Of a DNA stretch of 64,000 nt, positions 1,089 to 61,300 are shown piece by piece. Each line of letters begins with the position of its first letter. The first letter of the stretch is position 1. A program made the position numbers and the translations under genes. Origin of the DNA: Amphiscolops sp. MND2022 (taxonomy: Eukaryota). Below the pieces are notes generated by a model. That model was not told where the DNA came from, ran no database searches, and worked only from the letters and a program-made list of their open reading frames with translations. The DNA is taken from assembly GCA_964187785.1 (NCBI GenBank), contig OZ076409.1:8186001-8250000 (forward strand), in the 5' to 3' direction.

Positions 1089-1149
1089 ATTGGTCCGCCG
1101 ACCCGGACACTATTCAATCTGGGTTTTACTAGAAAACTTTTTATGCATT

Positions 1150-12608: not shown

Positions 12609-13015
12609 GGGTGACTATTCAAATCGTAGAATATTCAAACCGTCGAAAAAATCAAAGCTATTCAAAGCGTCGAAAGAATTCCATAGCAGAGATTATTTTC
12701 AGGTTATAATTTGAAGAGGTTAGCATATTTGTTGTATGGCTCAGTGGCTTCGCTCCCTTCGCCAAGTAGCAACATTGAGGCATAGCCATATGCACGTCGC
12801 TCCGCTTCGCTTCGCTCCTGCATTTAGTGCACTAGGAGTATGTGGACATAGCTGACTACGTTATCGTAATTAGTTCGTCGCTTATGCTGTATTCATTTCA
12901 CTGAATTTGATAGGTTCATTGAATGAAAGTTTGGTCACGTGACTATGACGCGCAGTATTTACTGCGTGTAAACTGCTTTCGACGCTTTGAATATTCTACG
13001 ATTTGAACCGTCCCC
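12609..13015. mobile_element. MITE with ~30-bp TIRs
   Basis: GGGTGACTATTCAAATCGTAGAATATTCAAA ... TTTGAATATTCTACGATTTGAACCGTCCCC, flanked by GATAGAA(A/G) on both sides. Confidence 0.75.
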
Positions 13016-16000
13016 GATAGAAGGTTTGAAATAAGAAAGTTTAAGAATTTCCAGGGTAAGAAAACGGAAACACAAAAACGGCTAATCCTAGTCTCAGTGC
13101 AAATGGTAGTATTAAAATTTGAATTGGATAATATAAATTACTTTCTTATACTGTTTCGCAAGGTTTCATTAAACATCTGAGTAATCAGAAGGAGTAGTAA
13201 AAACTGCGAGATATGGGGGCAATAAAATTGAAAGACACGAAAGTACAAAACATTGCAACAGACTTGGATGAGGTCGGTAGCTGTGATTTTAGCTGCTCGA
13301 TAATATAACCGAATGATAATATACCATACTGTAATAAATGAATTGGACCTCTGATTGTAAAAAATGAGTTGGACTCGATTAAACGAGACCAAAATCTTCT
13401 GAACGAAAAAATATTTTGGAAAACTGTAAAACTAAAACTTTAATCAATTTTAACGTTGATTACAAACATTTTCGTTTAAGATTCTGAGATTTCGTTTCTA
13501 ACCTATTTTAGTTCAAACTTCGAAAGCCTTGAGTGTAGAAAAAAAAATCATTTTCAATCTTTCGGACGCTTTTTCAACAAAAGTATCCACTAAAATATTT
13601 TTTTATTGCAAAACTTTGAAAAGAAACCTTCTTGAACAGGACATTTCAGAGAAAGAAACTTGAATGCAATGTATTAAGATAGGGCATGAAATTATTTTTG
13701 AACGAACCCTTATATAATTAAAGTTTTCTTCAAGTTTTATGTAAACAAAACATAATATCGTCATTAGTGAATGGATTAGTTTCTGTCAATATTCCAAAAT
13801 TGTAAGAAATGCGTCTGTGAGACGCCTAATTTTGCAAAAAATTGCTCCTAGATCGAAAATTAGTAGTAACTACTGTACTGTGATTAAGAAATCATCCCCC
13901 TATGCGCTGAGCGTCGTTATCAACCAATTAGAATTGCGTATTTGCTCTCACTTTCAATTCTGATTGGCGCATCAAGTGAAATCTCCGGCGCAGAAAGAAC
14001 ACTTCTGCTATTTTCCCAGTTTTTGGGCAGGTTTTTGAAATATTTTTCTGGAAATTTTAAATTCATCGAAGTCTGCAGATTGTATAGAATTCAATGATAT
14101 TTTCTTTGTTTCAAAAACATTCTAAATGAAAGAATAATCGCAGTTTTCCGTCGCGAAACGTTAATTTCCTATCTTAATACATGTAGATCGACGAAATTTT
14201 ACCTTTCGAGCATGATATTTCAAAAACGGTTGATAATTTTTGAAAACGAAAAACATCCATAGATTCAGTAGATTTGTGCCGATAAACATGTATTAGATTT
14301 GTGTAGATAAAACATGCCAAAAAACTGTGGATAAAACGGTCAAAAATTGGTAAAACGGAAAAAAGCCCCAAATTTGCTCAAACTCAGCTAATTGTAACTT
14401 TCTCAATTTTTGTCCTAGAAAAATTTAAAAAACACTAATGTAAACTAGATGAAATTCTAAGAAACTTTTATTTCTAATGTTTTTCAAAATTCTCTAACTA
14501 CGTTATCGTAATTAGTTCGTCGCTTATGCTGTATTCATTTCACTGAATTTGATTGGTTCATTGAATGAAAGTTTGGTCACGTGACTATGACGCGCAGTAT
14601 TTACTGCGTGTAAACTGCTTTCGACGCTTTGAATATTCTACGATTTGAACCGTCCCCGATAGAAGGTTTGAAATAAGAAAGTTTAAGAATTTCCAGGGTA
14701 AGAAAACGGAAACACAAAAACGGCTAATCCTAGTCTCAGTGCAAATGGTAGTATTAAAATTTGAATTGGATAATATAAATTACTTTCTTATACTGTTTCG
14801 CAAGGTTTCATTAAACATCTGAGTAATCAGAAGGAGTAGTAAAAACTGCGAGATATGGGGGCAATAAAATTGAAAGACACGAAAGTACAAAACATTGCAA
14901 CAGACTTGGATGAGGTCGGTAGCTGTGATTTTAGCTGCTCGATAATATAACCGAATGATAATATACCATACTGTAATAAATGAATTGGACCTCTGATTGT
15001 AAAAAATGAGTTGGACTCGATTAAACGAGACCAAAATCTTCTGAACGAAAAAATATTTTGGAAAACTGTAAAACTAAAACTTTAATCAATTTTAACGTTG
15101 ATTACAAACATTTTCGTTTAAGATTCTGAGATTTCGTTTCTAACCTATTTTAGTTCAAATTTCGAAAGCCTTGAGTGTAGAAAAAAAATTCATTTTCAAT
15201 CTTTCGGACGCTTTTTCAACAAAAGTATCCACTAAAATATTTTTTTATTGCAAAACTTTGAAAAGAAACCTTCTTGAACAGGACATTTCAGAGAAAGAAA
15301 CTTGAATGCAATGTATTAAGATGGGGCATGAAATTGTTTTTGAACGAACCCTTATATAATTATAGTTTTCTTCAAGTTTTATGTAAACAAAACATAATAT
15401 CGTCATTAGTGAATGGATTAGTTTCTGTCAATATTCCAAAAATGTAAGAAATGCGTCTGTGAGACGCCTAATTTTGCAAAAAATTGCTCCTAGATCGAAA
15501 ATTAGTAGTAACTACTGTACTGTGATTAAGAAATCATCCCCCTATGCGCTGAGCGTCGTTATCAACCAATTAGAATTGCGTATTTGCTCTCACTTTCAAT
15601 TCTGATTGGCGCATCAAGTGAAATCTCCGGCGCAGAAAGAACACTTCTGCTATTTTCCCAGTTTTTGGGCAGGTTTTTGAAATATTTTTCTGGAAATTTT
15701 AAATTCATCGAAGTCTGCAGATTGTATAGAATTCAATGATATTTTCTTTGTTTCAAAAACATTCTAAATGAAAAAATAATCGCAGTTTTCCGTCGCGAAA
15801 CGTTAATTTCCTATCTTAATACATGTAGATCGACGAAATTTTACCTTTCGAGCATGATATTTCAAAAACGGTTGATAATTTTTGAAAACGAAAAACATCC
15901 ATAGATTCAGTAGATTTGTGCCGATAAACATGTATTAGATTTGTGTAGATAAAACATGCCAAAAAACTGTGGATAAAACGGTCAAAAATTGGTAAAACGG

Positions 16001-16136
16001 AAAAAAGCCCCAAATTTGCTCAAACTCAGCTAATTGTAACTTTCTCAATTTTTGTCCTAGAAAAATTTAAAAAACACTAATGTAAACTAGATGAAATTCT
16101 AAGAAACTTTTATTTCTAATGTTTTTCAAAATTCTC
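12855..16136. repeat. Near-identical tandem duplication, 1642-bp period (12855-14494 / 14497-16136)
   Basis: Identical short ORFs offset by 1642; only scattered substitutions. Confidence 0.97.
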
Positions 16137-21099: not shown

Positions 21100-21896
21100 G
21101 GACGACTTCCGTTAGCGCATATACAATGTGTTACCTACCAAAAGTATGACCCTGTGACATTGTTAGTATTCGCTGCTTCCAAAACGCAATAACTTGCAGA
21201 AGGGATTTTGTTCTGCAAAACTTTTAGAATTGATTTCATTTAATTGTATGTGCCTTTAATGTTTACCAGAGACTGGTTGATGCGGTAACACTGACAGAGT
21301 TGCGAGAATAACAACAACAAAAAGGAGACGTCAAGGAAGAGCAACAGAGAAGTGTAAAGAATTTTATTCTGCATAGAGTAGGCAATCAAAACAACAATAA
21401 ACTAAAGTGTACATTATTATGTAAATGATTAATGCCGTTATTAGTGATATTCCCTGGATGAAGTTAAATGCAAATCTTTAAAGATTCTTGCCAATATCTT
21501 GCATTTGATGGCTATCTTGCAAGATTGTGGACCTAAATTCAAATCTTGCAAGATTTTTCAGAAGTATGCAAATCCTACAAGATATCTTACAAGATTCTTG
21601 AAAGAAAAACATTTTGCTGCAAATATCTGACTAAAAGAGTGTTATAGAATCCGGTCTCTACATCTCGTTTTTAGAGAGAAAGCAACTGAATATTGTATTG
21701 TTCTCGTGCCAATAATGAATATCAACTGGTGTCATATGAATTCAGAAAGCTACAATGGTATAAATGAAGAAACTGTCAAAATAACAAAAGTTGTTTACTA
21801 ATATAGACAATCAAATTAAAGTTTCGAGACAGCAAATTATCGAAAAGAGTATTTTAGTGGAAAACGGTATTTTAGTAATTTTTTACCAAAGACTCC

Positions 21897-21969
21897 GCCG
21901 GTTCTGAGAATCGAACTCTAGACCTTTGGAATAGAAACCGAACGCGCTAAGCTATTGTGCTAAAGTGCC
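21897..21969 (-). ncRNA. tRNA-derived Pol III A/B-box unit inside the LTR of B (also 30888-30960 and 31774-31846)
   Basis: GGCACTTTAGCACAATAGCTTAGCGCGTTCGGTTTCTATTCCAAAGGTCTAGAGTTCGATTCTCAG: A box, TCT at the anticodon position, B box. The acceptor stem does not pair. Confidence 0.7.
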
Positions 21970-22176
21970 TTGTTATTTGTTTATTTTAATCCAATCATAT
22001 TGTGTACACAACATCCTCCGGGCCCAAGAAGATGTGAATGCAAGAAACATTAGAATTGAAAAGGAAACTTTTTTTTCGGAAAACGGTTTACATGGATTTT
22101 CGATGATGTACATGTTACATTTTATTCATGTTAGGTACGATTACAAGCGAGAATAAAAACGGAGAGTTATTACAGA

Positions 22177-25100
22177 TTAAGTAAGATTGGGGGAATCGGG
22201 GGACGGAAGAACGGGTGCGAGTTTGACAACGGGTCGAATGAGGTTTCCTGTTGCGGTTTTCAGTTCTGCAGAACGAGCGATAGCGTCGGTACCGTAGTTC
22301 AGCTTGACCACACGTGCAAGTGGGTAATGTCCTCGTGGACTCGTAGGCTCCACAATCCAGACAAGGTCCCCGATCTTGAGATCTTGATCTGGTTGGGCTG
22401 ACCACTTCGAACGGCGGTTAAGCGACGGAACGTAATCTTTTAGCCAACGGTCCCAAAGAGCATCTGAGTACGCTTGCGCACGTGCGTAGCGTTTCCTGTG
22501 GTCGAAGTCGGCTCTTTGGTGTGATGGCATTGTGGAACCCGCGGTTCCCAACAGGAAGTGGTTTGGTTTCAAGGCGTCAAAATCCGTAGCGTCGGAGCTG
22601 ACGGGCACCAGTGGGCGGGAATTGAGACTCTGTTCTACAAGACAAAAAGTAGTTGTTAATATCTCGTCGGTTAGGCGACGGTTTCCAAGAATTGCGTAAA
22701 AAACGTGTTTGAAGCTCCTGACAATTCGTTCCCAGACACCTCCGTGGTGGGGAGCACTGGGAGGATTGAACTTCCAGTGGATCCGTTTTTTGACCAAAGC
22801 TTCAGACAGAATCTGTTGGTTCCACGCTGACACGTTTTGCAGTAACTCCTTTTCACTGGCGATGAAATTGGTTCCGTTGTCAGACCACAAAACTGATGGG
22901 ACGCCCCGACGGGCGGCAAATCTTTCGATTCCCATAACACAGCTACTAGTGTCCATTGACGGGACAACTTCAAAATGGACAGCTCTGGTTGTTAAGCAAG
23001 TAAATAGGAATCCCCATCGTTTTTCGGTTGATCTTTTCACAGCTACGTGAAACGGACCAAAATAGTCAATTACGGTGTTCGTAAATGGACGCTCTTGAAA
23101 TGCCAGTCTTTCGCGAGGAAGGTCGGACATTATCGGGTTGAGAGTTTCCGCTCGACGTTTGCGGCAAGTGACACATTTGGAGACAATTGACCTCAGGGCG
23201 GTTCTAAGCTTGACGATGGCGAACTGTTGCTGCACCAACGCCCTCATGTAGTCGACACCCTGATGGCAATGCGTTTCGTGGAGCTGCTCTAAGTACAAGC
23301 GTATGGCGGGGTGACGGCTGTCCAGTAAAATAGGGTGTTTTGCGTCGAAGTTGGAAACTGTTAGTTGTTTGGTCCGACCGGTTGCTCGCAGTAGGCCTTG
23401 AGGCCCAATGAAAGGGGAGAATTGGGAAAGTTTAGAAGAGTTGCTGACGGGGGATTTTTTCAGCAAGCACTTCAGTTCGACGGGAAATGACTCTTGTTGG
23501 ATGAGATAGAAAAGTCTCAATTCAGCATTTCGCATTTCATTTGGGTCAGTTACTAAACCAGAGTCGGATCGGTAACCTTCGTTTTTTGGCAGTAGGCGCA
23601 AAATGTAAGCAACAACGCGCAGAAGTTTCTCGTACGAGCTGTACTTCTGCCACTCGAAAGTTGTCGCGATGCTGATCACGGTTGCACTTAAAGCTGTCAA
23701 AAATTCCGAAGTTTCTTGTTCCGAAAGGGGAGTGTCCGACTTTTTCGCTTTCAATTTGACCTCAACTTCTTTTGGTGGTTTGAACGGCCAGTCGTGTGTT
23801 CGCAAGAATGAAGGACCTTTGAGCCAAGGACTGTCACGAAGTGAGTTGGCTGAAAGACCACGCGTTCCTGCATCAGCGGGGTTGTCACTTGATTTAACAT
23901 AGTTCCATTCATCCACTGTTGTTAGTTCCAAGATTTCGGCAACGCGGTTGGTTACAAACACCGGTTGCTTCTCTAATGAATGGAGCCACTGAAGGACCGT
24001 CGTGCTGTCCGTCCACATGAAAGTGTTAGCAACTCTGACCGTTAGCGCATTTTCAATTTCTTTTCGGAGTCGTGCAGCAAGCAACGAGGCTTGTAGTTCA
24101 AGCTTCGGGATCGTAAGGGCTTTCATGGGTGCTACTCTGGCTTTCCCAAAGACGAAAGCTAACTCTGTTGTATAACCAGTCGTGGTGTCAACTTTTCCTC
24201 GTAGAAAGGCGACGGCGCTGAAGACATCTTGAGAGCTGTCACCGAACATATGAAGCTCCAAGGTTTCAACTCGCACTTCGAAATAGCTCCGTGGGATTTG
24301 AATTTCGCTCAAAGTTGGCAGTTCCTTGCTCCATTCGTTGAACTTAGTTACGACTTCGTCTGGCAGATCGTCATCCCACTGTTGACCACTTAATCTCCAG
24401 ATGTCTTTCAACAACAGTCTTGCTTGGACGGTAAACGGAGCAACGAGTCCAATGGGATCGTAGACAGCTGAAACTACGCTTAGTACCACTCGTTGAGTAA
24501 GTTTCTTGTTCGTAGCAGGGCTCGTTCCCCGACTTACAACGAGAGTGTCACAGGCATGATTCCATTTAAGTCCCAAGACATGTGAGGACTCGTCTGGTTC
24601 CGGAATCACCTTCTCATCGGTCGGTGCTAGTTCGCCGCTTTGTTGCAGTTCGGCTGAAAGGTGATTAATGTTGGAAACAAACTTAGTTAGATTAAAGCCA
24701 CCTTTTGCAAGCAGTGCCACCAAGTCCTTTGCTTTGTTACTGGCTTCTTCGACCGTAGGGCTTGATTCCAAGTAGTCGTCCATGTAAAAATTGCGATAAA
24801 CGCTTTTCGCTGCTTCAGGGAAAGCGTCTTGGTTATCGCTACCAGTACGTTTCAGTGCGTAGTTCGCACATGTTGGTGAGTCCTTCGACCCGAAGATGTG
24901 CCGGACGTACTGATACACAGCGATTTCTGCAGCTGGGTCTTCCCGCCACAGAAAACGAAGTGAAGGTTGATCTTTTGGTATGACTCCAACTTGAAGAAAC
25001 ATACCTTCGATATCGGCAGAGACGGCGTACTTGTGTTGACGAAAGCGGATCAGTATGTGTATCAAACTTTGTAGCAAGTCCGGTCCGGTTAACAAGGCGT

Positions 25101-28100
25101 TGTTCAAAGATTGGCCCTGGAACCTTGCTGCGCCATTCAATACTCTGCGAACTTTGAAAGGTTTTTGCGGGTGCACTACAGGATGGTGTGGCAGGTACCA
25201 CTCGCGGGGTTGGTCTAAGTTGAAACAGTCGCTTTTGTCAACTTTGGTGATGTAACCTTTGTCGAAGTCGTCGTGAATTGTTTTGGCATAAAGTTGTTTC
25301 AATTCAGGATCTTTGTCGAGGCGACGTTCCAACGATTTTAGCTGCACGAGCGCGGAAAAGTAGTTATTCGGCAAACTACTGTCAGCTTCGGTCCACAACA
25401 TTCCCACATGGTATCGGTTACCATCGTGGTAAGTCGTTTCTTCAAGTATTTCCAACGCTCTCGCATCGGCAGCGGAACGCGAATCTACTTGCTTGTACGC
25501 TCCATACGATTCGATGTCGTACCAGCTTCGGAGTTGGTCGGCAAGTTCGGAGTCGAATTCCTTGTTAGAAGCAACAGCTTTAAAACAAGTTGAATAGAGA
25601 CCTGAGGACGAGGGGAGCGGTCCACTCAAAACCCAACCCAACGGTAAACGAACGGCAACTGGAGCATTTTTGCGGTCGGAATCAAAATACTCCAGCGGGC
25701 GGATCGAGTGGAAAACATCCTGACCTAGGATCATTTCAACATCGGCGTAGCTGTACTTTTTCAAAGAGATTGGTTGCAAATGGGGGTACTTTGTTTTCAA
25801 AAGTTCGACATCGATGGTGTCAGTTCCGACTTTGACGTCTTCTCTGACATACGGTTTAACAACAAAGGGAGAGCAAGAGCCACCCGAATGAACGGGTGTC
25901 AACTTAAGCTCCACCAGTTGCGTGTCTACGACTTGGTTGGAATTCATGCCATGGACAGTAAGCTTGGTCGGGGTGCCGTGTACGTTCAACTTCGTTGCCA
26001 GATTCGCTGAGATCCAGGAATGGCTGCAGGCAGAATCACACAGTTTTAGGACTTTTTCGCTTTTGCCGTTCGAGTGAAGTTCAACTTCCGTTACTTGTAA
26101 TAGGCCCTTGACTTCAGCAACGGAAGGCATGCCTGAGCTCTCGTCTGATCTTTCGTTTTTCACTGACGTTCCGATGCAACCAGATGTTTCAGCTTTGTCC
26201 GTGTTCACATCAGTGACTTTCTTGGCAAAAATTCTGTCGGCTCCGTGTAAGAAAGAGTTGTGTGAACTCCCGCATTCATCTTTAGTACACTTGCGGGGTT
26301 GCGGGCACTGGCGAAACGTGTGATTTTGATTGAAGCATGAAAAGCAAAGCTTGTTCTCAGCTACAAGTTTTGCTCTCTGTGTGGGAGATTTTCTTCTGAA
26401 TGCCGGACATCTCCACAAAGGATGTTTTTCTTTACAGGCGACGCAAGTGTTTGACGGTTTGTCGCTTTTACCTTTGGCGCTGACACTTTGTTGACTAGAC
26501 GTCGTAGCGGCGAAAACCTTAGAAGCAGTCTTGGTCTTAGTTACGGTCACGCTGTTACTTTCTTCAGGTTTCGCTTTGCTGGGTAGAGACTTCATGCGCT
26601 CATGCGCTTCGGCTTTGTCTTTAAGCCAGTCATTGAAGTCAATGAGTGTCGGTCTGTCCAAAATTCGCCTCACTGTGTGCAGCGACCATGCTTCTCTCAT
26701 GTTTGGCGGAAGCTTTTGAACGGCTTGTCCAAGCAATGACGCGCTCGAGAGATCTTGGACGTAGTTTAGAGATCGGAAGACCCCAACTAGAGAACAGATT
26801 GTTGCTGAGTAACTGATGATGCTCTCACTGTTGTGCATCTTCACGGGTGGAAAGTTTGCCAACTTATCCAGATAGGCAGTTACTACAGCCTGTGGCTGTC
26901 CAAACTTCCGTTCTAGTGCCTTTAGGGCGTCTCTATACATTGCTCCGCAGTAAGCAAATTCAGCGATAGCAGTTTTTGCTTTACCTGTAACAAGAGTCTT
27001 GAGGTATGTTAACTTGACGTCATCGGTGAGTGGGGCTGAGTCTATGGCACTTTTGAACTGGCCAAACCATTCATGCCATTGTATCGGGTCACCATTATAT
27101 TGTGCTAGTTTCCACTTTGGCAGATGGTCTTTCTTCGTTGAAGCTAACAACAAGGCAAGATCTTGTATCGTGAATCCGGTTGTACTTGGTTGCATAGTCG
27201 TTGACGTTCCGGCTGGCACAAAGGTAGCGGCTGTTGGACTAAGAGAAGTTGTGCTACTGTACTGTACACAATTGGCGTTGTAACTGTTGCTGGGGGTATA
27301 TAATAAACAGTTCCACCAGCGGTAACGGGTACGGTCGGAGCGGCATAGGTTGGCGCGTGAGCAAACGGCATGAAAGTAGGTGCCAACGGCTGTGTTGGGG
27401 GCGGAATCGTTGTTACAATCGGTGCGGTGGTGACAGTCGGGTTCGGGAAGGTCCATGCGGACAAGTTTGGGAGGATGTGGTTCACCGGCATTGTGAACGC
27501 GGGCATCCGTGCTGTCGTTTGTGACGGTAAAACTTGCGCATTGAAACTTCTAGTTTGGGTCGGGATGATTGTCGGTTGAACTTGTTGTTGTACTGTGACA
27601 TCCGAGGTTGAAGGTCCGATATTCCCAAAGTTTTGCGCTGTCAATGGGGGAGTCTGAATTTGTACCGCAGGAGTGTGATTTAAACTCATTGATGGAACGG
27701 TAGTTGTTGGTAGTTGTACTGCCACGTTTGTTTCATTGGGATCACCTGGTGCGAAAATCGGCTGAGAGACATTAACCGGAGGTTGCTGAGATGGAATCAA
27801 AGCGGTAGTATTTGCGGCAGAAGTCGCTAGACTTGCAGTCTCCGCTGTTACAGTCTCATGTTGAGTCGTGGTAACGATTGGCGAGTTGTTAACCCAGTCA
27901 CTAACTTGGCGCGTTTCGCTAGCGTCTGTTGTTCTGCTCAACCGCGAAAGAATCTCATGAGCATCTTCGTTAGCTTCAGATGGATCTTCTTGAAGTTCAA
28001 GTTCAATTAGATGCGCCTCTGCAAGTCGTTTGCGGTTCTCTTCTTGCAGTTGTTCAAGTTCCAGCTCTTGCTTTTGTTTAGCCAGTCGTAAAGCAGCTTC

Positions 28101-28577
28101 GTTTTGCCTTTCTACTTCTTCTCGCTTGTGTTTGGCAATAAGCAAGTCTCGTTGGCGCTGACTTGAAGTTTTCGACGCTTTGCTGCTTGAAACTTTGCTA
28201 GACTTAGTCTTCACGGTGGCAGCTTTGACTGAAGTTTGCGAAGAATTATCTGTTTTGGGACATTGATCGATATATTCCCTTGCGTTTCTAAAAATTTCAT
28301 CGTTTTGTATGCTCATGACGTTCAACCATTTTTCTAAGTCTGCTGTGACAGTTGCCGGGTCGTTGGTTTTCTTGGCAAGCTCGAGTAGCTGTTCGTTCTT
28401 AGCGAAAGCTTTAGTCATAGCTTCTTCGCAAGAAGTGACCAACCGTTCGACGCGGACGCGTCTATCGGCATTGGTTACTGCTTCTGTGACGTCGTTTTGA
28501 TATCTAATCAAGTCGGCTTCGGCTCTCGCGCGACTGTCATACAACTTTTGCAACTTTTCATGAATGGGGTCAGACAT
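22177..28577 (-). CDS. gag-pol: Gag-Pol polyprotein of B, broken by one 5-nt duplication near 27255-27265
   Basis: Starts MSDPIHEKLQK; coiled coil, Thr/Pro-rich linker, DUF1759, Cys/His knuckles, protease DSA, RT YMDD, Pao RNase H, HHCC and DDE integrase. ACTGT-ACTGT duplication lies at the frame switch. Confidence 0.93.
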
Positions 28578-28988
28578 TACGTTGTCAAAATTAGGGAATC
28601 GGGTTACTTTGCAGACGTCAACCAAACAATTAAGTTTGCACACAGTTCAGGAAAAAGTTTGGTGGCAGAAAGAACGGTGATTATCGGTGACAACACTGTT
28701 TCTACAGCGCTTCAACGAAGAAACTGGCAATTTTTTTGTTTTAAGTTAAAAGTAGTCACAGACTACGAGGACGGAACACGATAAACTCAAAGTCGCGTTG
28801 AAGAAACGCGGTGTCAGTTGACGATGGTGCGGGTGAGGGACGAAACGTTTTTTCAGAGTATCAACCAGTCAGTCAAGACTGGACACAACTCTGAAAAAAG
28901 AAGGAAGAGCTGAAGAAACTTCAACCGATCAGTGAAGTTCGGACACTGTCTCAACAGCTGGAAGGAGCGGGGGGGTTGTTAACTGAGA

Positions 28989-29597
28989 TTAAAAAGAGGC
29001 AGCGGCTCTCTTCGCAGCGTTACGGGCACGCTTACTTCGCCGTTTGGGTCGGCTCTTATCAGTTATTGAGGATAGTGCGTTCTCTTTACGGAGCAGAAAG
29101 TACAAATTTTTCAGTTCAAGCTCAGGGCTTTGATGCAAAGCTTTAAATTTTTTCAAAAGGTCGGCATCCTTCTGTTTTTTCGGAGAAATAAAGTCTTTGA
29201 CTATATTGAATACTTTGATATCAAGATCGGTTTCCAATGTTTTCAATGATTCAAAGATCTCGGGGGTACGAAAGCGGTGGCAATACACCAGAGCACTGAG
29301 TTTTTTCTGAATGCTTTTCAAAATTTCAATCATTTCGGACACTGATAATGCACAGAAGTTGTTACTATTATGACGAGAAATGCTGTTATTTAGGACATCA
29401 TGCCAAATAATAATGTTGTTTTTATCTTTCAGATCTTTCGAAAGCAAATTTTGGACAATTTTCTTCGGATTTTTCGTCAACGGATTAAGACTTAGGCCCG
29501 GGATGGTATAAATTTTGTCATTGAAATGTTCTTTTTCATCGGGAGTTAACGTTTCTATTGCATGGTGCAAAGAACTAGCAGCCAATATGAAAACCAT
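28989..29597 (-). CDS. ORF0 of B: 202-aa SGNH/GDSL-hydrolase-like protein with a basic tail
   Basis: Intact ATG ORF homologous to 59448-60089 and 62166-62702. Blocks FILAASSLHH, IPGLS, IIWHDVLNNSI and ALHQS. The fold is inferred by eye. Confidence 0.8.
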   Translation of the reverse strand: MVFILAASSLHHAIETLTPDEKEHFNDKIYTIPGLSLNPLTKNPKKIVQNLLSKDLKDKNNIIIWHDVLNNSISRHNSNNFCALSVSEMIEILKSIQKKLSALVYCHRFRTPEIFESLKTLETDLDIKVFNIVKDFISPKKQKDADLLKKFKALHQSPELELKNLYFLLRKENALSSITDKSRPKRRSKRARNAAKRAAASF

Positions 29598-30734
29598 ACG
29601 TGATTTGTTTACAACAATTTGCGCAAAATTGATTTTGTTTTCTCAAGATTTTTTCATTCGGCTACACGGATTATCAAAGGGCGGATACAACAATTTTTCA
29701 AACTGGAACAAGCTTACATGGAAAATTCGGGACAATTTTTTTTACAAGAAGCAAAAATGAAATTAGCATTCAGTTCTCCAACTTTTTTGCCGATTTTCAG
29801 TTGATAATTACGAATTGAACCTTTTTTTGAGTTCTCTTTGAAAGAAGAGTATCAAAATTTTGTGTCTTTTGGGAAATTGTTACTTTAATTTTTTTTTTCA
29901 ATCACCCTTTCCAAATTTCGTAAGAAACTGAAAGTTTTACATAACACAAAAAAGTGACTCGAATTTGACAAACTTCGCTGTCTCGAAGCTAGTAGCACAA
30001 TAATGTTTCTTCGGGTTATTGGTTTTTTCAAGAAACGCTTTGCAAAATAAATTAAAATTGAAGCGCAAAGCTTTTAAAGTTTTTTTTTCGGGTACTCACG
30101 ACCATGAATTCATCTTCGGGGGGTGGGTACATTCGGTGCTTCGGGTGGTTTATTCCGGGCTTCGGTGGAACCGATGATGAGGGTTCAGAGTTGACTGAAT
30201 ACTGAGGGTGAACATATGGAGGTAAATTTGGTAGGATTTGAGGACTCTTATCTTCAGTGACGATGCAAAATTACAACCAGAGTGACAACTTCTCAACGAA
30301 AATAACTCACTAAAGCTAATTTCGACATTTTCCAAGAGAAGATACTACCAAAGGTAAGTAGTTTTCTCAAAAGTAAGAGGTCCAGAAGTACTCATTGAAG
30401 AATTGCCCAGAACTGTTCTCATTCAGCAGCATTTTCCGTTCAACATTAAAGTGAATGTGTCAATTCAGTATTTGCAAAATATTGTTCTGTTACTGAAGAA
30501 ATTAGCCCAATAAGGGAGATGAAAGGTAGAAACAATGGAAAGTATTGGACTAAAACAACCAACAGGCGTCCAAAGAAAGTATCCGCCTTACCCAAAGAAG
30601 TCGTGCCTCTCTATGGCCACCATAAAAGAGTGTTATAGAATCCGGTCTCTACATCTCGTTTTTAGAGAGAAAGCAACTGAATATTGTATTGTTCTCGTGC
30701 CAATAATGAATATCAACTGGTGTCATATGAATTC

Positions 30735-32508
30735 AGAAAGCTACAATGGTATAAATGAAGAAACTGTCAAAATAACAAAAGTTGTTTACTAATAAAGACA
30801 ATCAAATTAAAGTTTCGAGACAGCAAATTATCGAAAAGAGTATTTTAGTGGAAAACGGTATTTTAGTAATTTTTTACCAAAGACTCCGCCGGTTCTGAGA
30901 ATCGAACTCTAGACCTTTGGAATAGAAACCGAACGCGCTAAGCTATTGTGCTAAAGTGCCTTGTTATTTGTTTATTTTAATCCAATCATATTGTGTACAC
31001 AACACTGACAATGCAAATCTTGCAAGATGATAAACTAGAATACCAGTCTTGCAAGAATCTTGCAAGACAATGCAAATCTTGCAAGACAACAAATGAGTTA
31101 TGATAACGTAGTCAACAGCTTCACCAATTGTCGAAAAAAGATTATTTTTCTCTTGTTTTTGCGTTTTTTTCCAAAAAATGTACGCCTATCATCAATTTAG
31201 GTTCGTTCGGCTTGATTTCGAAGTCTCCATCGTGTACGTGATAGAGGCTCATTTGTTTTCCAATGTACTTCATCAAAACTGAGTTTCAAATGTCAGTTTT
31301 TTTGCAAAAATTTGGCTTTCAGGGCGCATTACTAAAATCACAATTCTAGAGTTTTATTTTTTCTAGAGTTTGCATTTTTGGGTCCTTCACAATTTTAGAA
31401 GTGAGACTCTGGCTGTAATGGAGGTTGTCTTTGTAAATCGGATCCCTTAATTCCATGAATACTTTTGATTTGAAAATTCAATTCTTTCAAGATTCTTCGA
31501 GAAAATGTATATCTTGCAAGATTATCATTGAAAAAATGTTTATCTTGCAAGATTCTTGCAAGATGGCTTGAAGAAAAATGCATTTTCTTTAAAGATAAAA
31601 ATGTAAGAATCTTGCAAGATAGAAAGCGACAATGGTATAAATGAAGAAACTGTCAAAATAACAAAAGTTGTTTACTAATATAGACAATCAAATTAATGTT
31701 TCGAGACAGCAAATTATCGAAAAGAGTATTTTAGTGGAAAACGGTGTTTTAGTAATTTTTTACCAAAGACTCCGCCGGTTCTGAGAATCGAACTCTAGAC
31801 CTTTGGAATAGAAACCGAAGGCGCTAAGCTATTGTGCTAAAGTGCCTTGTTATTTGTTTATTTTAAACCAATCACATTGTGTACACAACACTGACAATGC
31901 AAATCTTGCAAGATGATAAACTAGAATACCAGTCTTGCAAGAATCTTGCAAGACAATGCAAATCTTGCAAGACAACAAATGAGTTATGATAACGTAGTCA
32001 ACAGCTTCACCAATTGTCGAAAAAAGATTATTTTTCTCTTGTTTTTGCGTTTTTTTCCAAAAAATGTACGCCTATCATCAATTTAGGTTCGTTCGGCTTG
32101 ATTTCGAAGTCTCCATCGTGTACGTGATAGAGGGTCATTTGTTTTCCAATGTACTTCATCAAAACTGAGTTTCAAATGTCAGTTTTTTTTTGCAAAAATT
32201 TGGCTTTCAGGGCGCATTACTAAAATCACAATTCTAGAGTTTTATTTTTTCTAGAGTTTGCATTTTTGGGTCCTTCACAATTTTAGAAGTGAGACTCTGG
32301 CTGTAATGGAGAGTGTCTTTATAAATCGGATCCCTTAATTCCATGAATACTTTTGATTTGAAAATTCAATTCTTTCAAGATTCTTCGAGAAAATGTATAT
32401 CTTGCAAGATTATCATTGAAAAAATGTTTATCTTGCAAGATTCTTGCAAGATGTCTTGAAGAAAAATGCATTTTCTTTAAAGATAAAAATGTAAGAATCT
32501 TGCAAGAT
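30735..32508. repeat. ~886-bp tandem duplication spanning the outer part of B's 5' LTR and its flank
   Basis: 30735-31620 is repeated at 31621-32508, including the LTR end and TSD. Confidence 0.95.
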
Positions 32509-50872: not shown

Positions 50873-51520
50873 TAAGTATGTGCGCCAGGGTCAAGACCTG
50901 AAACTTGTCCTTAATTGTGCACTGATTCCTATAGTTTATTGGAGAATTTATCCATCGTTTGTCATTATGTCTATCATAATCCTTTCCTAAACTGGTCATT
51001 GAAGAAGAAAGGATGCGAAATCGGGACATGTACAGGAGGTTTTCTCTCCGACGTTACTTGAAGTGTGATCAAAAGGAAAGGTAGAAAGTTTTCCTGTTCT
51101 AGTATTTCCTGACTCCGAAAGACGCCGAGCTGAAGAAGGTGTGAAGTACACGTGCGGGATTTTCGCGCCTAATTTGAAGTATTTTTACCTGATGATGGAT
51201 TAGGTAAATACACAATTCCTTGTTACATTTGTAACGTTCAGTACTTTCATTTTGATTTGTTTTACAGGATTTTCTGATTTTATCTCAACTACATCTTACA
51301 TCCGAACTTTGAGAACGTTATATCCAGAATTAGGTACAAGTTAGATTTTTTATGAAAAACGGTTTACCTAGCACATTTTACAACATTTAAAAATTCTCCA
51401 AGAAACGTTATATCCGGTATACGTTTTATCCAGAATTCGTTATATCCAGTTTGCGTTAAATCCGGTATGTTGACAAGCAAGCTATAAAATTAAAAGCAAA
51501 TAGTAATCGTTCCGTTTCAA

Positions 51521-51590
51521 GGCATTTTGGCAAAAAGGATGCGCGCTAGCTTTCGAGGCAAAAGACCGTGGGTTCGATTCCCGGACACGT
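51521..51590 (+). ncRNA. tRNA-derived A/B-box unit in the LTR of D
   Basis: GGCATTTTGGCAAAAAGG...TTTCGA...GTGGGTTCGATTCCCGGACACG. Confidence 0.65.
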
Positions 51591-52539
51591 AAAAATAATT
51601 CAAATTTTAGAAAAATTCCTCAATTTCGGTAGAATAACCTTGAAAAAGGGCCTTGCTATTTAGGTTTACTGTTGTTTTTTGTTGACAAACATCAATTTGT
51701 TCTTTTTGCAGTCCTTTCATATTACTACTTACATTGTATGAATAATTTTGCAACCGTATATAGCCAAACTCAATTCAATATTTTTCGACTCTCAAAAACG
51801 ATCTAAAGAATCGCCAGCTATAGTTAATTCATGGTGGCCATAGAGAGGCAAACTTATTATCCACACTGGAAGATTCATCTTTCAACCGTATCATCTTTCA
51901 ACCGCTTCAACCGCTTCCGTGCTTAGTTACTAAAAAATTCCTACTTATAATTATAAATTCTTTGGTCTTCTGAAACTTGACTCAGACATTTGACCAATTC
52001 TGATACCAGCTAATTAACTCTAGCTTATTGGTTGTTACATAATCATGTTGTCGGGTTTACCAAATCAAACGAATGACGTCCGAACAGTCACCAAAAGGTA
52101 GTACTTTACCAGAATCGAACAAAGCCCAGAAGACAAGCAGCACTCAAAGTCCTCGGAACATAAAGAAGAATCATGAACATGAGTGAAACTGGAGTGTATC
52201 TTTAATAATACCTTACCCCCCACCGTAAACCCGAAAATGTCCCGCTGTCACAAACTGGCGTGCCCCAAAAAGTGCTCTGCTTGACGAAGGTGACCTGCAC
52301 CCTCCTTCGCTAAGTGAATCCCCGATGTAAAATCTTTTAGACCAAAGATTTGTATGAGAAGAAACGTCTATTCAACTTTTTCAATGAGAAAGCCAAACAA
52401 GAGAATCATTACCGCCAACTCAAAGTTTGATCACCAAATTACAAAAGAATATGACTCACTTTTTGATCTGAATAGCAAGGCCATTTCGAGAGTATTTTTA
52501 CCGAAATCGGAGAAATATTTCCAAAATATAAAATATTTT

Positions 52540-52608
52540 GCATGTCCGGGAATCGAACCCACGCCGGTCAAATACCGGCCTTGTACTCTACCGCTGAGCC
52601 AAGCTGCC
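52540..52608 (-). ncRNA. tRNA-derived A/B-box unit in the LTR of C (also 61048-61116)
   Basis: GGCAGCTTGGCTCAGCGGTAGAGTACAAGGCCGGTATTTGACCGGCGTGGGTTCGATTCCCGGACATGC: consensus A box TGGCTCAGCGG and B box GGTTCGATTCC, followed by TTTT. Confidence 0.8.
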
Positions 52609-52816
52609 TTATAATTTGTTTGTTTTAAATTAACGATATTTGTATTGCTATCGCAACATCCTCCGGGCCCAAGAAGATGAAGAATGTTAAAATGTCAAAA
52701 ACAAACTTTTTTCTCGATTTTATTTTCATATTTTCCATAATCAGTTTGGAATGAAAATTCATGATACATATTTTGAAGATACATGTGGTTCAAAAGTTAA
52801 GTACAATTAAAATGGA

Positions 52817-55800
52817 TTATGATAAATCAATTAAATCAGGGGAAGGAAGGACTGGGGCTAGTTTCACGACCGGACGGACAAGGTTTCCAGACGTGGTTTT
52901 AACTTCGGCAGAGCGAGCGACAGCATCGCTGCCAAAATGGAGTTTGATGACACGTGCGAGAGGGTAGTAGCCTCTCGGGTTAGTGGGTTCTACAATCCAA
53001 ACGAGATCTCCGGTTTTCAATTGCCTGTTGGACTGTGTGCACCACTTTGAGCGACGATTCAAAGTCGGCACGTACTCTTTAAGCCACCTGTTCCAGATAG
53101 CGTCAGAATAAGCTTGGGCGCGTGCATATCGCTTGCGGTGGTCAAAATCACAGTTAGCATGGGACGGTAGAGACGATCCAGCTGTTCCAAGCAAGAAGTG
53201 GTTAGGTGTCAAAGCATCCAAGTCGGTTGCATCTGCGCTTGCTGGAATCAGCGGACGAGCGTTGAGGCTCTGCTCCACAAGACAAAACACCGTTGTTAGT
53301 ATTTCCTCTGTCAAGCGACGGTTGCCGAGTATCGCATAGAAAGTATGCTTAAAACTTCTCACTAGCCTTTCCCAGACACCGCCATGGTGTGGAGCACTAG
53401 GAGGATTAAACTTCCAGCTGACACCTTTCTTTACCATAGACTCAGCAATTGACTGTTGATTCCACTTGAGAACGTTCTGGAGGAGTTCTTTCTCTGACGC
53501 AACAAAATTAGTCCCATTGTCTGACAAGATAACAGAAGGGATGCCCCTACGGGAAACAAATCTCTCAATTCCCATGACGCAACTGCTAGTGTCCATTGAT
53601 GGCACAACTTCGAAATGGACAGCGCGAGTTGTAAGACATGTGAAGAGAAATCCCCACCGCTTCTCTGTGGAGCGTTTAACGGAGACGTAGAAGGGGCCAA
53701 AGTAGTCTAAGCCAGTATTTGTAAAGGGTCGCGATGAAAAGGCCAAGCGTTCTTTTGGTAGATCGGCCATAATCGGGGTCAGCGTTTCCGCTTTACGTTT
53801 GCGACATGTTACGCATCTGGTTTGAATCGTTCTCAATGTCGTTCGCAGTTTGACAATGGCAAACTTCTGTTGTATCAAGGCTCTCAAGTACTCTACGCCT
53901 TGATGGTAGTGCTTCTCATGAAGATGTTCTAAAAATAAACGAACTGCGGGGTGCCGGCTATCGAGTAAAATAGGGTGTTTGACGTCAAAGTTGGCAATTT
54001 CCAGATGTTTTGTTCGACCTTGAGCACGGAGAAGGCCGTTTGGACCGATAAAGGGGGAGAAATCTTTTATAACTGAAGGCTTGCTCAATGAACAAGTCTT
54101 CAGCAGATTTTTTGTTTCGTTCGGGAACGTTTCGGACTGTACCAAGAAGAACAATTTTTGTTCAGCACTTTCAAGCTCGACAGGATCAGTAATTGCTCCT
54201 GTTTTAGTTCTGTTACCAGAGAATCTCGGCAAAATACGCAAAATGAATGCAGCAATGCGCAAAAGTTTCTCGTACGAGCTGTACCTTTGCCATTCGAGAG
54301 TTAGGACATTAGGAGTTACACTTGCGGTATTTGCTGTTGTCTCTTGGTAGACTGAGTCGGCGTTAATTTTATTGGAATCATAGTTTTTCAATTTATTTTT
54401 CAAGATCTCTTCCGTCGGCTGAAAAGGCCAATCAGGAGTCATCAAGAACTTGGGACCTTTGAGCCAAGAACTGTCAAAAAGGGATTTTGCCGGCAGACCG
54501 CGCGTGCCCGCGTCTGCCGGGTTGTCGGCTGTTGGCACGTGGTTCCATTCATCAACTGTCGTCAACTCAAGAACTTCGGCAACTCTATTGGCGACAAATA
54601 CGGGTTTTTTGTCAATGGAATGGAGCCATTGGAGCACAGTTGTACTATCGGTCCACATGAACGTTCGCTCAACAGGTACCGTGAGTGCTTGTTGAACTTC
54701 ATCCTTTAGTCGGGCTGCTAAGAGTGCGGCTTGGAGTTCCAATTTCGGTATTGTGAGCGCTTTCATCGGGGCAACACGAGCTTTCCCAAAGACAAGGGCT
54801 AACTGGGTTTCAGTCCTCTCGTTGCGGCTCACTCGCGCACGGAGGAAAGCAACAGCGGCAAAGACATCTTGAGAGCTGTCGCCGAAAACGTGTAACTCAA
54901 CACTTCTCATGGTTCCACGAAAATAACATCTCGGAATGGTTATTTCGCTCAAATTGGGAAGCTCTGCGGCCCATTCAAGAAACTTTTTGCTAACGTTGTC
55001 AGGCAGATTGTTGTCCCATTGTTGCCCACTCAGGCGCCAAATGTCTTTCAACAAAAGGCGGGCTGTTACAGTATATGGTGCCGCAAGACCAATGGGATCA
55101 TAAACCGCGGACACTAAACTAAGGACAACACGCTGTGTTACTGGTCGATTCAAGTCAGGTGTAGTTCCTCTGCTGACAACCAAGGTGTCACGACTATGGT
55201 TCCATTTCAAACCCAAAACATGAAAAGTGTCTTCATCTGTTTCTAAGACTTTCTCGTTCGATTCGGCAGGCAGTTGATATTTGGGGTCGACGATTTTCAC
55301 CAATCCTGGAACATTACTGACAAACTTGGTTAGGTTGAAACCACCTTTGGCTAACATTTCGACAAGATCTTGAGCCTTCTTGGTTGCTTCGTTGATGGTG
55401 GGGCTTGATTCAAGATAATCGTCCATGTAAAAATTGTTTTCGACACTGTTGGTGGCTTCAAGAAATTGGATTCGGTTGTCACGAGCAGTCTGTTGCAAAG
55501 CGTAGTTGGCACACGTTGGCGAATCCTTCGAACCGAAGATGTGACGTACGTATTGGTACACAGCGACGTCTGTTGCAGGGTCCTCCCGCCACAGAAAACG
55601 AAGAGACGGTCGGTCTTCGGGGATCACACCAACTTGTAAAAACATTCCCTCGATGTCAGCGGATACAGCATAGGGATGTTGTCGGAATCGCATGAGCACA
55701 TGGATTAACGTTTGCAACAAGTCAGGACCAGTTAAAAGTGTGCTGTTCAGTGAAACACCATGAAATTTCGCTGCACCATTGAGTACACGGCGTACTTTTC

Positions 55801-58800
55801 CTGGCTTGTGAGGGTGGATCACTGGGTGGTGCGGTAGATACCACTCACGCGGGTTGTCAACTCTGAAACAGTCTGACTTGTCGACTTGAACGATGTATCC
55901 CTTGTCGAAGTCGTCCTTAATGGTCTGAGCGTAACTCGCTTTCTGTTCAGGAGTTTTTTCGAGTCGGCGTTCAAGGGATTTCAATTGCACTAAGGCTGAA
56001 AAGTAGTTGTTCGGGAGACTACTCTCGTCATCAGCCCACAACATACCGACCTGATATCGGCATCCGTCATGATATGTTGTTTCTTGCAAAATTTTCGACG
56101 CTCTAGCATCGTCAGCAGAGCGCGGGTCTATTTGTTTCATTGCAGCAAACGACTCCATTTCATACCAACTCCGAAGTTGATCGGCCAACTTGGAGTCAGT
56201 CTCGCTTTGCGTGACAGCTTTGAAGCAAGTCGAGACGAGTCCTGTAGTCGAAAGTAATGGTCCACTCAAAACCCAACCCAACGGTAATTGGACGGCAATT
56301 GGGGTATTTTTTCGGTCGGATTCAAAATACTCCAACGGGCGGATTGAGTGGAACACGTCTTGACCCAGTATCATTTCGACCTCTCCATAACTGTACTTGC
56401 TCAGAGCGACGGGCTCCAAATGAGGGTACTGTTGCTTCAATTGGTCAACATCAATGACATCGTTTCCAACATGCAAGTTTTTTTCTGACGTAAGGTTTGA
56501 CATCAAAGGTAGAGCAAGAGCCACCCGAATGAACAGGTGTCAACTTAAGCTCAACTATTTGAGTGTCAACAACTTGTTGAGAATTGATGCCATGAACAGT
56601 TAGTTTGGTCGGTAAGCCCTTTACGTTCAACTTGGTTGCGAGATCTTCGGAGATCCAAGAGTGACTGCAGGCTGAGTCACACAGTGCCATTACCTTGGCG
56701 GATTTAGTCGAAGTGTGAACTTCAACTTCAGTAATTTGGAGCAGTCCTTTCACATCGGTCACGGAACAGACTCCGGAGCTCTCTCCAGCTTTATTCACAG
56801 TTGTTTTGAGGCTACGCGATCCAGTTTCTTGGTTACTGGACGATTTCGGTGTCGTTTTTGGTTGGAAAACTCTCTCTGCGCCATGTAGCAGGGTGTTATG
56901 AGAGCTGTTACATCCATCTTTGTTGCACTTGCGTGGTTGTGGACATTGTCGGAAAGAATGGTTTCCTTTCAGGCAGGAGAAACAAAGTTTGTTTTCGGCA
57001 ACAATCTTTGCTCTGTCGGTCGGCGTTTTATCAAGGAACACGCGACAGCGCCACAGTGGATGGTAATCCTTGCACACGTTACAGTTTAATTGCATTTGAT
57101 TCGGTTTAGTTCTGGATTCTTTTGAAGATGCGCTAGAACTTGTTGCGGCAAAAACTTTCGTACCAGTCTTTGTTCGAGTAACTGATTGCGTACTTTCATC
57201 GCTCTTGGGCTTTGTGGTTGAGATTTTCATCCTCTCATGTGCTTCGGCTTTATCTTTCAACCATTCGTTAAAATTCCAAGAGGGTTGGTCGGCTCCAATC
57301 TTTCTTGACAGTGTGCATAGACCAAGCTTCCCTCATGTTTGGGGGTAGTTTCTGCACGGCTTGACCCAATAAGGCTGCACTTGACAAATCGTGTTCGTAT
57401 TTCAGCGAACGGAACACGCCAACCATAGCGGAAATTGTTGCAGAAAATGCTATCACATTCTCGCTGTTATGCATTTTCAATGGAGGGAAGCTATTCAGTT
57501 TGTCAAGATGAGCAGACACAACTGCCTGTGGTTGACCAAATTTCCGCTCGAGCGTCTTCAGTGCGTCTTGGTACATAGTCCCACAGTATGCAAATTCCAC
57601 AATTGCTGCCTTCGCTTTGCCTGTCACAAGCGTTTTTAAATACGTCAGCTTAACATCATTCGAGAGTGGTGCGGAGTCGATAGCACTCCTAAACTGACCT
57701 ATCCACTCGTGCCACTGCAATGGGTCTCCGCTATATTGCTCTAGTTTCCACTCAGGAAGATGGTCTTTTTTGGCAGCAGTCAGTAACTGCGCAAGGTCTT
57801 GGACAGCAACTGGAGTTAGCGTTGAAGGGGGAACGGTCGACTGGACTGTAGTCGGAAACGTTGAAACTGGAAAATTCGCGGCGGCTGCTGTAGTCTGTTG
57901 AATTGGTAAAGTTGTTGTTGGAAATGTTGTCGCAAGAGGGTTACAGTAGAAGGTTGTTCCTCCACTTTGGATTGGTACAACTGGTGTGAAAATCCCGCTT
58001 GTGGTCACTATTGGTGTTGTAGTTGTGCTCGTTAACGTAACTGGTCCTCTTACAGGCTGCGGAACTGTAGCATGTACTGTGGGGAGGTTACTCGGAGCCG
58101 GAAATGTCCAAGCAGACACGTTCGGTATGACATGGCTCGTTGGAATGTTGACTTGAGTCATTGTCGTAGTAGGAGTGACAGAGCGTTGTACTGGCGGGTA
58201 CATAGTCACTGGTACCGTCGCGGAGGAAACAGTATTCGTTGTAGTGTTCGCGGGTAGCGTACTGGTTAGCCTCGGATTGGTAGGAACAGACGAAATTCCG
58301 AATGAGGGACTCTGGTTTTGTCCCTGGTTTTCTCCCAGTCCAATATTGAAATTAGCTGACGATCTCATCGGTAGCATTGCTTGTTTCGTTTGAACAACAT
58401 TGGTTGAGTCGGTAATGACTGTGGGAGTGGACGATCCAGCGACATTGTTCAGATCAACGGTATTGGTCTGCAGTTGATTTGAAACATTGTCGGGTTCATT
58501 GACTTCATTGACCCAGTTGGACACTCTCAGTGACGTGGTTTGCTTGGAGTGATTACTAATCTGAGAGAGTGTATCATGAAGTTCGTCAGACGCCTGAGAA
58601 AAGTCGTCTGTCAACTCCAACTCAGTGAGCTTGGCTTCGGCAAGTTTTCGTCTATTTTCTTCTTCCAGTTCTTGTAATTGGAGAGCTTGTTCTTCTTCCA
58701 AACGCTCTCTTTCGCGTTCCAATTGTTTTCGTGCTACCTCTTGTTTCTGTTTAGCCAAACGAATGGCATTTGCATTTTGTCGTTCTAGTTCTTCTCGACG

Positions 58801-59247
58801 TTGGGTCGCCATAAGGAGATCCCTTTGTCTTTGACTAGACGTTTTTGTTTTGACAGAAGTTGATGATCTTCTGGAGGTGCTTTTATGGACAGTGCCGATT
58901 GATGGGTTGGAATTTACATCGGATCCAGTGCAACTGTCGATGTACTCACGAGCTTTTCTTAACACTTCGTCATTTTGCTCAGTGACTTCGCTAAACCACT
59001 TTTCTAAGTCGGCTTGAACTGTTTCCGAGTCAGATGTTTTAGATGCAAGCGTTTTCAACTGTTCGTTTTTGTTGAAAGCCTTCGTCATTGTATCTTCGGT
59101 TTCTTTAACAAGACGTTCGACTCGAACCCTTCGATCTCGACTTGTAATGGAATCGAGTATCTTTTGTTGAAGAGTAATCAAGTCAGTCTGTGCCTTTAGT
59201 CGGTTTTCGTGAAGTTTTTGAACCTTGTCTTGTTGCGAATCTGTCAT
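52817..59247 (-). CDS. gag-pol: Gag-Pol of C, with two single-base homopolymer frameshifts (~57270, ~56480)
   Basis: Three consecutive ORFs collinear with the B polyprotein: DUF1759, knuckles, DSA protease, YMDD, RNase H and DDE integrase. Confidence 0.93.
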
Positions 59248-59447
59248 TTTGTCTGTTTTGATTTTGTTTAGATTAAAAAAGGATAGTCGCGGAGCATGTT
59301 GCGGTTAGTTGAAAGATTAAGAAAAAGAAATCAACAAAACACGTTACTGTTTTCGAGAGAGTCCCTTCTGAGCATCAACCGAGCAGTGAAGCTCGGACAC
59401 AGCACAGAAAGGAAGGAAGGAAGCGGGTTGCAGCGTCAACCGGTCAG

Positions 59448-60810: not shown

Positions 60811-61300
60811 TGAAAGCCTCTCAATGGCCATCATGTAAAATCTTTTTGACCAAAGATTTGTATGAGAAGAAACGTCTATTCAACTTTTTCAATGAGAAAG
60901 CCAAACAAGAGAATCATTACCGCCAACTCAAAGTTTGATCACCAAATTACAAAAGAATATGACTCACTTTTTGATCTGAATAGCAAGGCCATTTCGAGAG
61001 TATTTTTACCGAAATCGGAGAAATATTTCCAAAATATAAAAAATTTTGCATGTCCGGGAATCGAACCCACGCCGGTCAAATACCGGCCTTGTACTCTACC
61101 GCTGAGCCAAGCTGCCTTATAATTTGTTTGTTTTAAATTAACGATATTTGTATTGCTGCCGCAACACCCGAAGCCCCGACAACACCGCCGAATCCCCGAA
61201 GGTAGAATCCGAAACCTTGTGCCCCGAACCCCGTAAATCACCACTCAAACCCGACTACTACAAAAACTAGTTTTGTAACCAGAACCGCATATCCGGTAAA

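Follow-up and report, generated by a model that had tools for sequence, protein, structure and literature searches.

tRNA-like units with Pol III-type promoter boxes in the LTRs of full-size Bel/Pao retrotransposons

Introduction

Wherever a small-RNA gene promoter has been described in LTR elements (Cassandra, Helenus and Ajax), it has, to our knowledge, been explained as making a short element RNA. The closest of these to the locus studied here is Helenus (TRIMp3; Kojima 2024), a non-coding element of 311–1263 bp with tRNA-like sequence in its TRIM LTRs, the whole RNA of which is proposed to be made by Pol III (PMC10886601). In the available text of the Helenus paper, Gypsy and Copia partners are named, 'BEL' occurs nowhere, and the autonomous partners are expected to rely on Pol II, without sharing the tRNA-like LTRs (PMC10886601). 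The same text mentions 'not a few' Repbase LTRs with tRNA-like parts and pursues TRIMs alone (PMC10886601), so that autonomous cases may sit unreported in Repbase.

We analyzed a 64-kb stretch of DNA (the window) from Amphiscolops sp. MND2022, in which the LTRs of three related families, B, C and D, contain a tRNA-like unit of 70–73 nt. The preliminary description of this DNA took the 5S unit of Cassandra as the nearest precedent, a place that belongs to Helenus (PMC10886601). As in Helenus, the tRNA-like sequence lies in the LTR, its conservation is centred on boxes A and B, it is not a functional tRNA and it lacks complementarity to the primer site; a SINE insertion into the LTR, the origin proposed for Helenus, was likewise considered here (PMC10886601). 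Unlike Helenus, the carriers are Bel/Pao elements of 8.8–9.4 kb with gag-pol, through which Pol III read-through is implausible, and since Helenus is defined as a short non-coding TRIM, B, C and D are not members of it. A Pol III promoter module inside the LTR is also found in Cassandra and Ajax, but Cassandra is a non-autonomous plant TRIM whose module is of the 5S type (type 1) and whose RNA is made by Pol III (PMC10886601). Foamy viruses are autonomous LTR elements and carry A/B-box Pol III units with T-run terminators in U3, apart from the Pol II genome RNA; these units, however, are expressed hairpin miRNA precursors with non-canonical boxes (PMC3993851), whereas the unit described here is tRNA-shaped, has no shared pre-miRNA-like hairpin and is known from sequence alone. 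In its decayed cloverleaf and preserved boxes it resembles SINE heads and tDNA barriers, and TFIIIC sites can stop the spread of repressive chromatin (PMC4584330, PMC11346459); unlike a SINE, it has no tail, target-site duplication of its own or free copy in the window, and travels inside the LTR. In a search of open papers, no tRNA-derived Pol III promoter was found reported for the LTR of a Bel/Pao or other autonomous element, and Repbase, subscription journals and the Helenus supplements may hold cases. It is likely that tRNA-type promoters in LTRs have so far been described only in tiny non-coding elements, and that the novelty here is their full-size, coding carriers.

Results

Bel/Pao elements in the window

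A nest of LTR retrotransposons makes up the window, with B and D on the minus strand and C and A on the plus strand (Table 1). Both B and D contain DUF1759 (gag), RT, Peptidase_A17, integrase and DUF5641, and both possess paired LTRs, a primer site, a 3' tract and a 5-bp target-site duplication; this domain set, the 5-bp duplications and the TGG-type primer site are those of Bel/Pao elements (Belpaoviridae). Element C is split by D, continues past 61166 and then leaves the window, within which it comprises a 5' LTR, a primer site and an upstream ORF (ORF0) and has no second LTR, pol or reverse transcriptase. It resembles B in its identical primer site and in an ORF0 that is 60% identical, with no RT for placement in a tree. 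The earlier assignment of all three families to Bel/Pao stands for B and D by gag-pol; C is provisionally grouped with them by primer site and upstream ORF.

Table 1. Coordinates of the elements, LTRs, tRNA-like units and associated features in the 64-kb window.
Feature	Position	Strand	Remarks
Element A, older Bel/Pao	131-7602	+	LTRs about 91% identical; control element
Element B	21632-31004	-	9.4 kb; Bel/Pao
3' LTR of B	21632..22013	-	382 nt; ends TG...TA; target-site duplication GTCAG
Unit in B 3' LTR	21896..21969	-	A box about 21952-21962, B box about 21907-21917; UCU at anticodon position
Sequence at polypurine-tract position, ahead of B 3' LTR	22014..22032	-	common to B and D (52659-52677)
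gag-pol of B (Bel/Pao), two overlapping frames	22177..28646	-	DUF1759, RT, Peptidase_A17, integrase, DUF5641
ORF0 of B (202 aa), upstream of gag	28989..29597	-	predicted SGNH/GDSL hydrolase fold
Primer-binding site of B	30605..30622	-	starts TGG; not complementary to unit
5' LTR of B	30623..31004	-	382 nt; 1 difference from 3' LTR of B
Unit in B 5' LTR	30887..30960	-	identical to unit in B 3' LTR
Unit, sixth copy, in truncated B LTR	31774..31846	-	1 difference
5' LTR of C	51468..51831	+	364 nt
Unit in C 5' LTR	51521..51592	+	weaker A box; internal T4 at +5
Primer-binding site of C	51832-51849	+	identical to that of B
Element D	52326-61166	-	8.8 kb; inserted in C
3' LTR of D	52326..52658	-	333 nt; target-site duplication TCGGG
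Unit in D 3' LTR	52538..52608	-	best A box; 6-bp hairpin in place of central arm
gag-pol of D (Bel/Pao), in pieces	52817..59304	-	
ORF0 homolog of D	59451-60089	-
Primer-binding site of D	60816-60833	-	two differences from that of B
5' LTR of D	60834..61166	-	333 nt; 4 differences from 3' LTR of D
Unit in D 5' LTR	61046..61116	-	then T6
ORF0 homolog of C	62166-62699	+

The LTR pairs are 99.7% (B) and 98.8% (D) identical; judged from their LTRs and coding sequences, B and D are young insertions of long-separated families, each retaining the boxes. The database cluster nearest to B (94% identical across 601 aa) counts 156 members, some of which have a single frame of 2130–2134 aa, so the B family includes members of intact length. 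Among named pol relatives, the closest belongs to the acoel Convolutriloba macropyga, at 56% across 592 aa. The distant Bel element A, whose pol is 30–45% identical to that of B, has neither the LTR unit nor the separate SGNH-fold ORF upstream of gag.

The LTRs of B show two peculiarities. Both end in TA (21632 and 30623, minus strand) rather than the usual CA, despite the recent insertion and the clean 5-bp duplication. An 886-nt tandem duplication at 30735–32509 spans the upstream flank of B and the first 270 nt of its LTR; between the truncated LTR copy and B's 5' LTR there are 7 differences in 270 sites, compared with 1 in 382 between the two LTRs of B itself. Either the merging of a second haplotype or gene conversion between the two LTRs of B might account for this mismatch.

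A tRNA-like unit in the LTRs of B, C and D

The five units reported previously were found where they had been placed, in the sense orientation of their elements and starting with GGCA after 44 (B), 53 (C) or 50 (D) nt of LTR; one further copy was detected in the truncated B LTR. A profile built from the three units gave six strong matches in 64 kb, all six inside LTRs, the next match having an E-value of 2.5. The LTR of each of the three families has an A core and a B core separated by 30–60 nt, compared with 5, 8 and 5 occurrences per 3000 dinucleotide shuffles, and the pair was not found in either LTR of element A or in the single Gypsy-type LTR tested. The A core precedes the B core by 43–46 nt, a workable spacing for a type 2 Pol III promoter. 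Against the Rfam whole-tRNA model the B unit scores 24.1 bits, short of the gathering score of 29 bits (E 0.0034 in a 156-nt search), and for the C and D units Rfam lists the T-loop hairpin alone; neither an Rfam scan of the whole window nor ARAGORN called a tRNA. A functional tRNA gene is ruled out by ARAGORN, by the sub-gathering Rfam score and by an acceptor stem that forms only four of seven pairs in all three families. By their letters, the units are tRNA-derived sequences and not tRNA genes. In B and C, the triplets at the anticodon position (UCU and UCG, respectively) are those of arginine tRNAs, and the unit may be akin to tRNA-Arg or tRNA-Gly.

The unit had been described as keeping its boxes but not its acceptor and anticodon arms. 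Conservation of the boxes holds, but the arms are partly retained: leaving aside positions that the B box fixes, 36 of 57 in the stems are paired under a hand-set register, against 22.0±3.5 in shuffles, and acceptor positions 1–4 are invariant across the three families. Per family, 13, 11 and 12 of 19 stem positions pair in the same hand-set register, each above shuffles (p 0.005, 0.04 and 0.03). The T-loop is invariant at seven of seven positions and the anticodon arm at 3 of 17 columns, and one T-stem pair is changed on both sides in B (A-T versus G-C). Folding revealed no stable shared RNA structure, no unit being more stable than shuffles in any of six folds (z −1.3 to +1.0). The A box is perfect in D only; that of B is without the GG pair and that of C departs from the consensus.

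A T-run does follow the unit, as previously noted, but it is weak. A first T4 run is found in four of the five full LTRs, 74–106 nt from the unit start, and T5 or longer solely in the 5' LTR of D (T6), the first T4–T6 across LTRs lying 74–124 nt from the unit start. T4s are frequent in these LTRs: 19–77% of downstream LTR positions have one within 15–35 nt, which is near chance, and the three family frequencies multiplied at about the observed distances give roughly 0.03, for distances picked post hoc.

Conservation against sequence age

Invariant columns are more frequent in the boxes (12 of 17) than in the other columns of the unit (15 of 43; Fisher p 0.013, three families), a count that omits the D loop and the variable loop, whose lengths differ. 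When the LTRs are aligned, only the 20-column segments covering the unit start with the A box (12 invariant) and the B box (14 invariant) reach at least 11 invariant columns; 60 shuffled alignments had a mean peak of 8.1 and a maximum of 11. A TATA-like or initiator-like block 45–75 nt past the B box, which seems conserved on visual inspection, has only 9 of 20 invariant columns, inside the shuffle range. The unit is the sole LTR segment similar in all three pairwise comparisons (z 8.2, 4.1 and 7.5), other segments being similar in at most one. The coding regions give a measure of age: between B and D the pol proteins are 72% identical and fourfold sites are identical at 119 of 402 positions (0.296, compared with 0.257 for random sequence; d about 2.2), and ORF0 fourfold sites are near random in all three pairs, over 27–36 sites only.

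Two earlier statements are borne out by these results. The boxes are better kept than the LTR sequence that flanks them, and, within the reach of three families, selection on them is supported, with synonymous sites near saturation. The boxes have probably outlasted the surrounding sequence through selection, to judge from these alignments.

LTR similarity and common origin of the unit

The claim that the LTRs of B, C and D are largely divergent holds in that the unit alone is similar in every pair, but single-pair similarity exists elsewhere. The C and D LTRs are about 80% identical over 99 nt from the T arm onward (downstream z 7.7), with 21 identical nt across the T arm, and their ORF0 proteins are 50% identical; B and D are alike at the 5' end (z 4.7), and B and C in the 3' part (z 5.5). 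This patchy similarity may reflect constraint or LTR pieces swapped between families after the coding regions had split. In the case of exchange, the unit would be younger than the coding split, and the argument from saturation would be weaker.

Several signs point to a common origin: B, C and D share the primer site and ORF0, no duplication abuts their units, and no free unit occurs in the 64 kb. An independent tRNA-derived SINE was rejected, having no target-site duplication of its own, body, tail or free copy within the window, and the idea that the units are separate SINE insertions meets no target-site duplication adjoining any of them. It is likely, from the sequences, that the unit was captured once by an ancestor of three related Bel/Pao families; with boxes conserved and synonymous sites near saturation, a single ancestral capture followed by selection on the boxes would be the simplest reading.

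In a pol tree of 115 segments, from which 7 of 122 full sequences and element A were dropped for short cover, B and D fall in a clade of 22 sequences (support 0.96) and bracket 20 other clusters, and all 123 tips of an ORF0 tree rooted at its midpoint lie within the span of B, C and D. The unit is therefore predicted across a large clade. As for relatives' DNA, protein queries in metagenome and viral contigs confirmed none of the pattern matches (0 of 90, 0 of 51 and 0 of 18). The motif formed by the 3' tract and LTR start matched 14 metagenome and 7 genome loci but no viral one, and 5 viral loci matched the primer-site motif; the 26 motif-matched loci comprised none like the window beyond the motif and none with the unit.

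Discussion

A candidate TFIIIC module at the outer end of the LTR

A and B boxes of type 2 promoters are TFIIIC sites, and 44–53 nt is about the space that TFIIIB requires. We propose that the unit is a TFIIIC/Pol III module at the outer LTR end, probably kept by selection as a predicted TFIIIC site that would hold the LTR open against silencing, while the genome RNA would be made by Pol II, a reading to which we give an even chance. Its starting points are a unit that agrees in place, orientation and length among B, C and D and that LTR copying carries to both element ends, and boxes kept in the three families while synonymous sites neared saturation. TFIIIC bound to the boxes would set TFIIIB on the 44–53 nt of upstream LTR, in keeping with the known positioning of TFIIIB upstream by TFIIIC (PMC3159450), and a Pol III assembly site would come with every new insertion. 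Should Pol III fire, it would end at the first T4–T6 and leave a short by-product RNA of 75–125 nt, and the internal region would not be crossed. By analogy with tRNA genes, SINEs and TFIIIC sites of yeast and animals, for which barrier or insulator activity is described (PMC4584330, PMC11346459), the bound module, lying between host flank and presumed Pol II promoter, could act as a barrier or a nucleosome-clearing site; its placement upstream of the promoter is assumed from the usual LTR anatomy. Counter to this reading, the residual stem pairing exceeds what DNA boxes need (36 of 57, compared with 22), the A boxes of B and C are imperfect, the terminators are near chance and the three families come from one window.

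Alternative explanations

Two uses of the unit at the level of the whole element were considered. Self-encoded primers and tRNA-like stretches occur in other elements, the former in Cer7 of C. elegans and the latter in HIV-1 U3-R. The unit resembles a tRNA, and the element around it requires a tRNA primer, yet in all three families the 3' end of the unit is unlike the complement of the primer site, the longest complementarity in the first 60 internal nt is 5–7 nt, and the primer site is of the normal TGG type and conserved in B and C; because complementarity is absent, the chance that the unit encodes the element's own reverse-transcription primer is virtually nil. An LTR module of the same kind as that of Helenus (PMC10886601) might suggest that Pol III transcribes the whole element, one LTR through to the other; such transcription has been shown for Cassandra, and for Helenus it is proposed. 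The internal regions of 8.2–8.6 kb, however, contain 48 (B) and 52 (D) sense-strand runs of T4 or longer, 12 and 11 of them T5 or longer, several further T4+ runs lie within the LTR itself, and the element RNA must be translated. Synthesis of a genome RNA of ~9 kb by Pol III is implausible on this sequence, and we regard the idea as hardly credible. With self-priming and Pol III genome RNA set aside, a local role remains; as the explanation given for the short elements fails here, the module has been kept for another reason or is a striking relic.

The residual stem pairing points to an RNA role or to a younger unit. If RNA is the product, it might be a tRNA-shaped Pol III transcript of 75–125 nt from each LTR, or the shape might act in the 3' U3 of the genome RNA, in either form countering the small-RNA defence of the host as a decoy or a regulator. 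Such a role would fit stem pairs above shuffles in each family, the two-sided T-stem change in B, the invariant T-loop and, as a parallel, the miRNA genes that Pol III transcribes within the U3 of simian foamy virus (PMC3993851). We nevertheless judge it unlikely: no fold beats shuffles, the acceptor stem is equally broken in the three families, they share no long downstream hairpin, the pairing register was set by hand, and the A-T pair also fits a B-box variant. We also doubt, to much the same degree, that the unit is a functionless SINE-head or tRNA-pseudogene relic that looks kept through LTR exchange or a capture younger than the coding divergence. The mosaic similarity among the three LTRs, the likeness of the C and D LTRs (21 identical nt, about 80% over 99 nt) although their ORF0 proteins are only 50% identical, the pairing typical of a young pseudogene and the damaged A boxes would all suit a relic, but it is the boxes, rather than the intervening arms, that show the conservation peaks, the anticodon arm is barely conserved, and young B and D insertions of long-separated families both hold the boxes. 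A landing pad, with an integrase that targets TFIIIB/TFIIIC sites in the manner of Dictyostelium TRE5-A and an element that brings its own targets, seems very improbable. TRE5-A inserts at isolated B boxes as well as about 50 bp upstream of tRNA genes (PMC3159450), D is nested in C, and a second piece of B LTR lies near B; D, though, sits about 730 nt downstream of the C unit rather than at a short fixed distance, no B-box core occurs from 17126 to the B 3' LTR or between the B 5' LTR and the truncated copy, and the insertion sites known are only two.

Wider implications

In its broadest form, a whole autonomous Bel/Pao clade (at least 20 pol clusters between B and D, 248 ORF0 relatives) would have domesticated a tRNA promoter as a portable U3 chromatin barrier or small-RNA gene, an idea advanced tentatively, as possible but on balance doubtful. 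If the unit binds TFIIIC, the clade would offer a natural test, in many families, of a transposon that carries its own silencing barrier; each element would defend itself against silencing, and insertions would seed hundreds of insulator-like sites through the host genome. LTR units of this kind would scatter TFIIIC sites and false tRNA calls through that genome. Deletion from an autonomous parent is also a possible route by which Helenus-type TRIMs arise.

ORF0 and other features

ORF0, for which 248 relatives were found, has no Pfam match, and Foldseek gave no match at E 0.001. The best match of its AlphaFold model (pLDDT 71) is to SGNH/GDSL hydrolases (Z 10.5, rmsd 3.2 over 143 residues), and Ser8, Asn70 and His155 are invariant or nearly so, so that an SGNH/GDSL hydrolase fold is predicted. 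GDSL esterases are known from rotifer LTR elements, where they form ORF3, and from non-LTR elements, where they form ORF1 (PMC5408684); in this Bel/Pao clade the ORF lies 5' of gag.

Just behind the primer site, D contains a fragment of an LMBR1-family membrane protein (60298–60820, minus strand; PF04791, E 4e-24 and 6e-11), apparently intron-less and frameshifted, which is likely, by its sequence, to be a captured piece of host mRNA. A T-rich stretch ending in CAG and resembling a splice acceptor is common to the LTRs of B (21770–21790, minus strand) and C (about 51695–51712, plus strand); D is without it. Between B and C lies a Gypsy-type element of 16.6 kb (34231–50872, minus strand) with 1680-nt LTRs that are 99.7% identical and an extra several kb between pol and the 3' LTR, containing unassigned ORFs and tandem repeats. 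A perfect 160-nt palindrome (10663–10822) and a 1643-nt tandem duplication (99.5%; 12852–16136), possibly assembly artefacts, were also observed.
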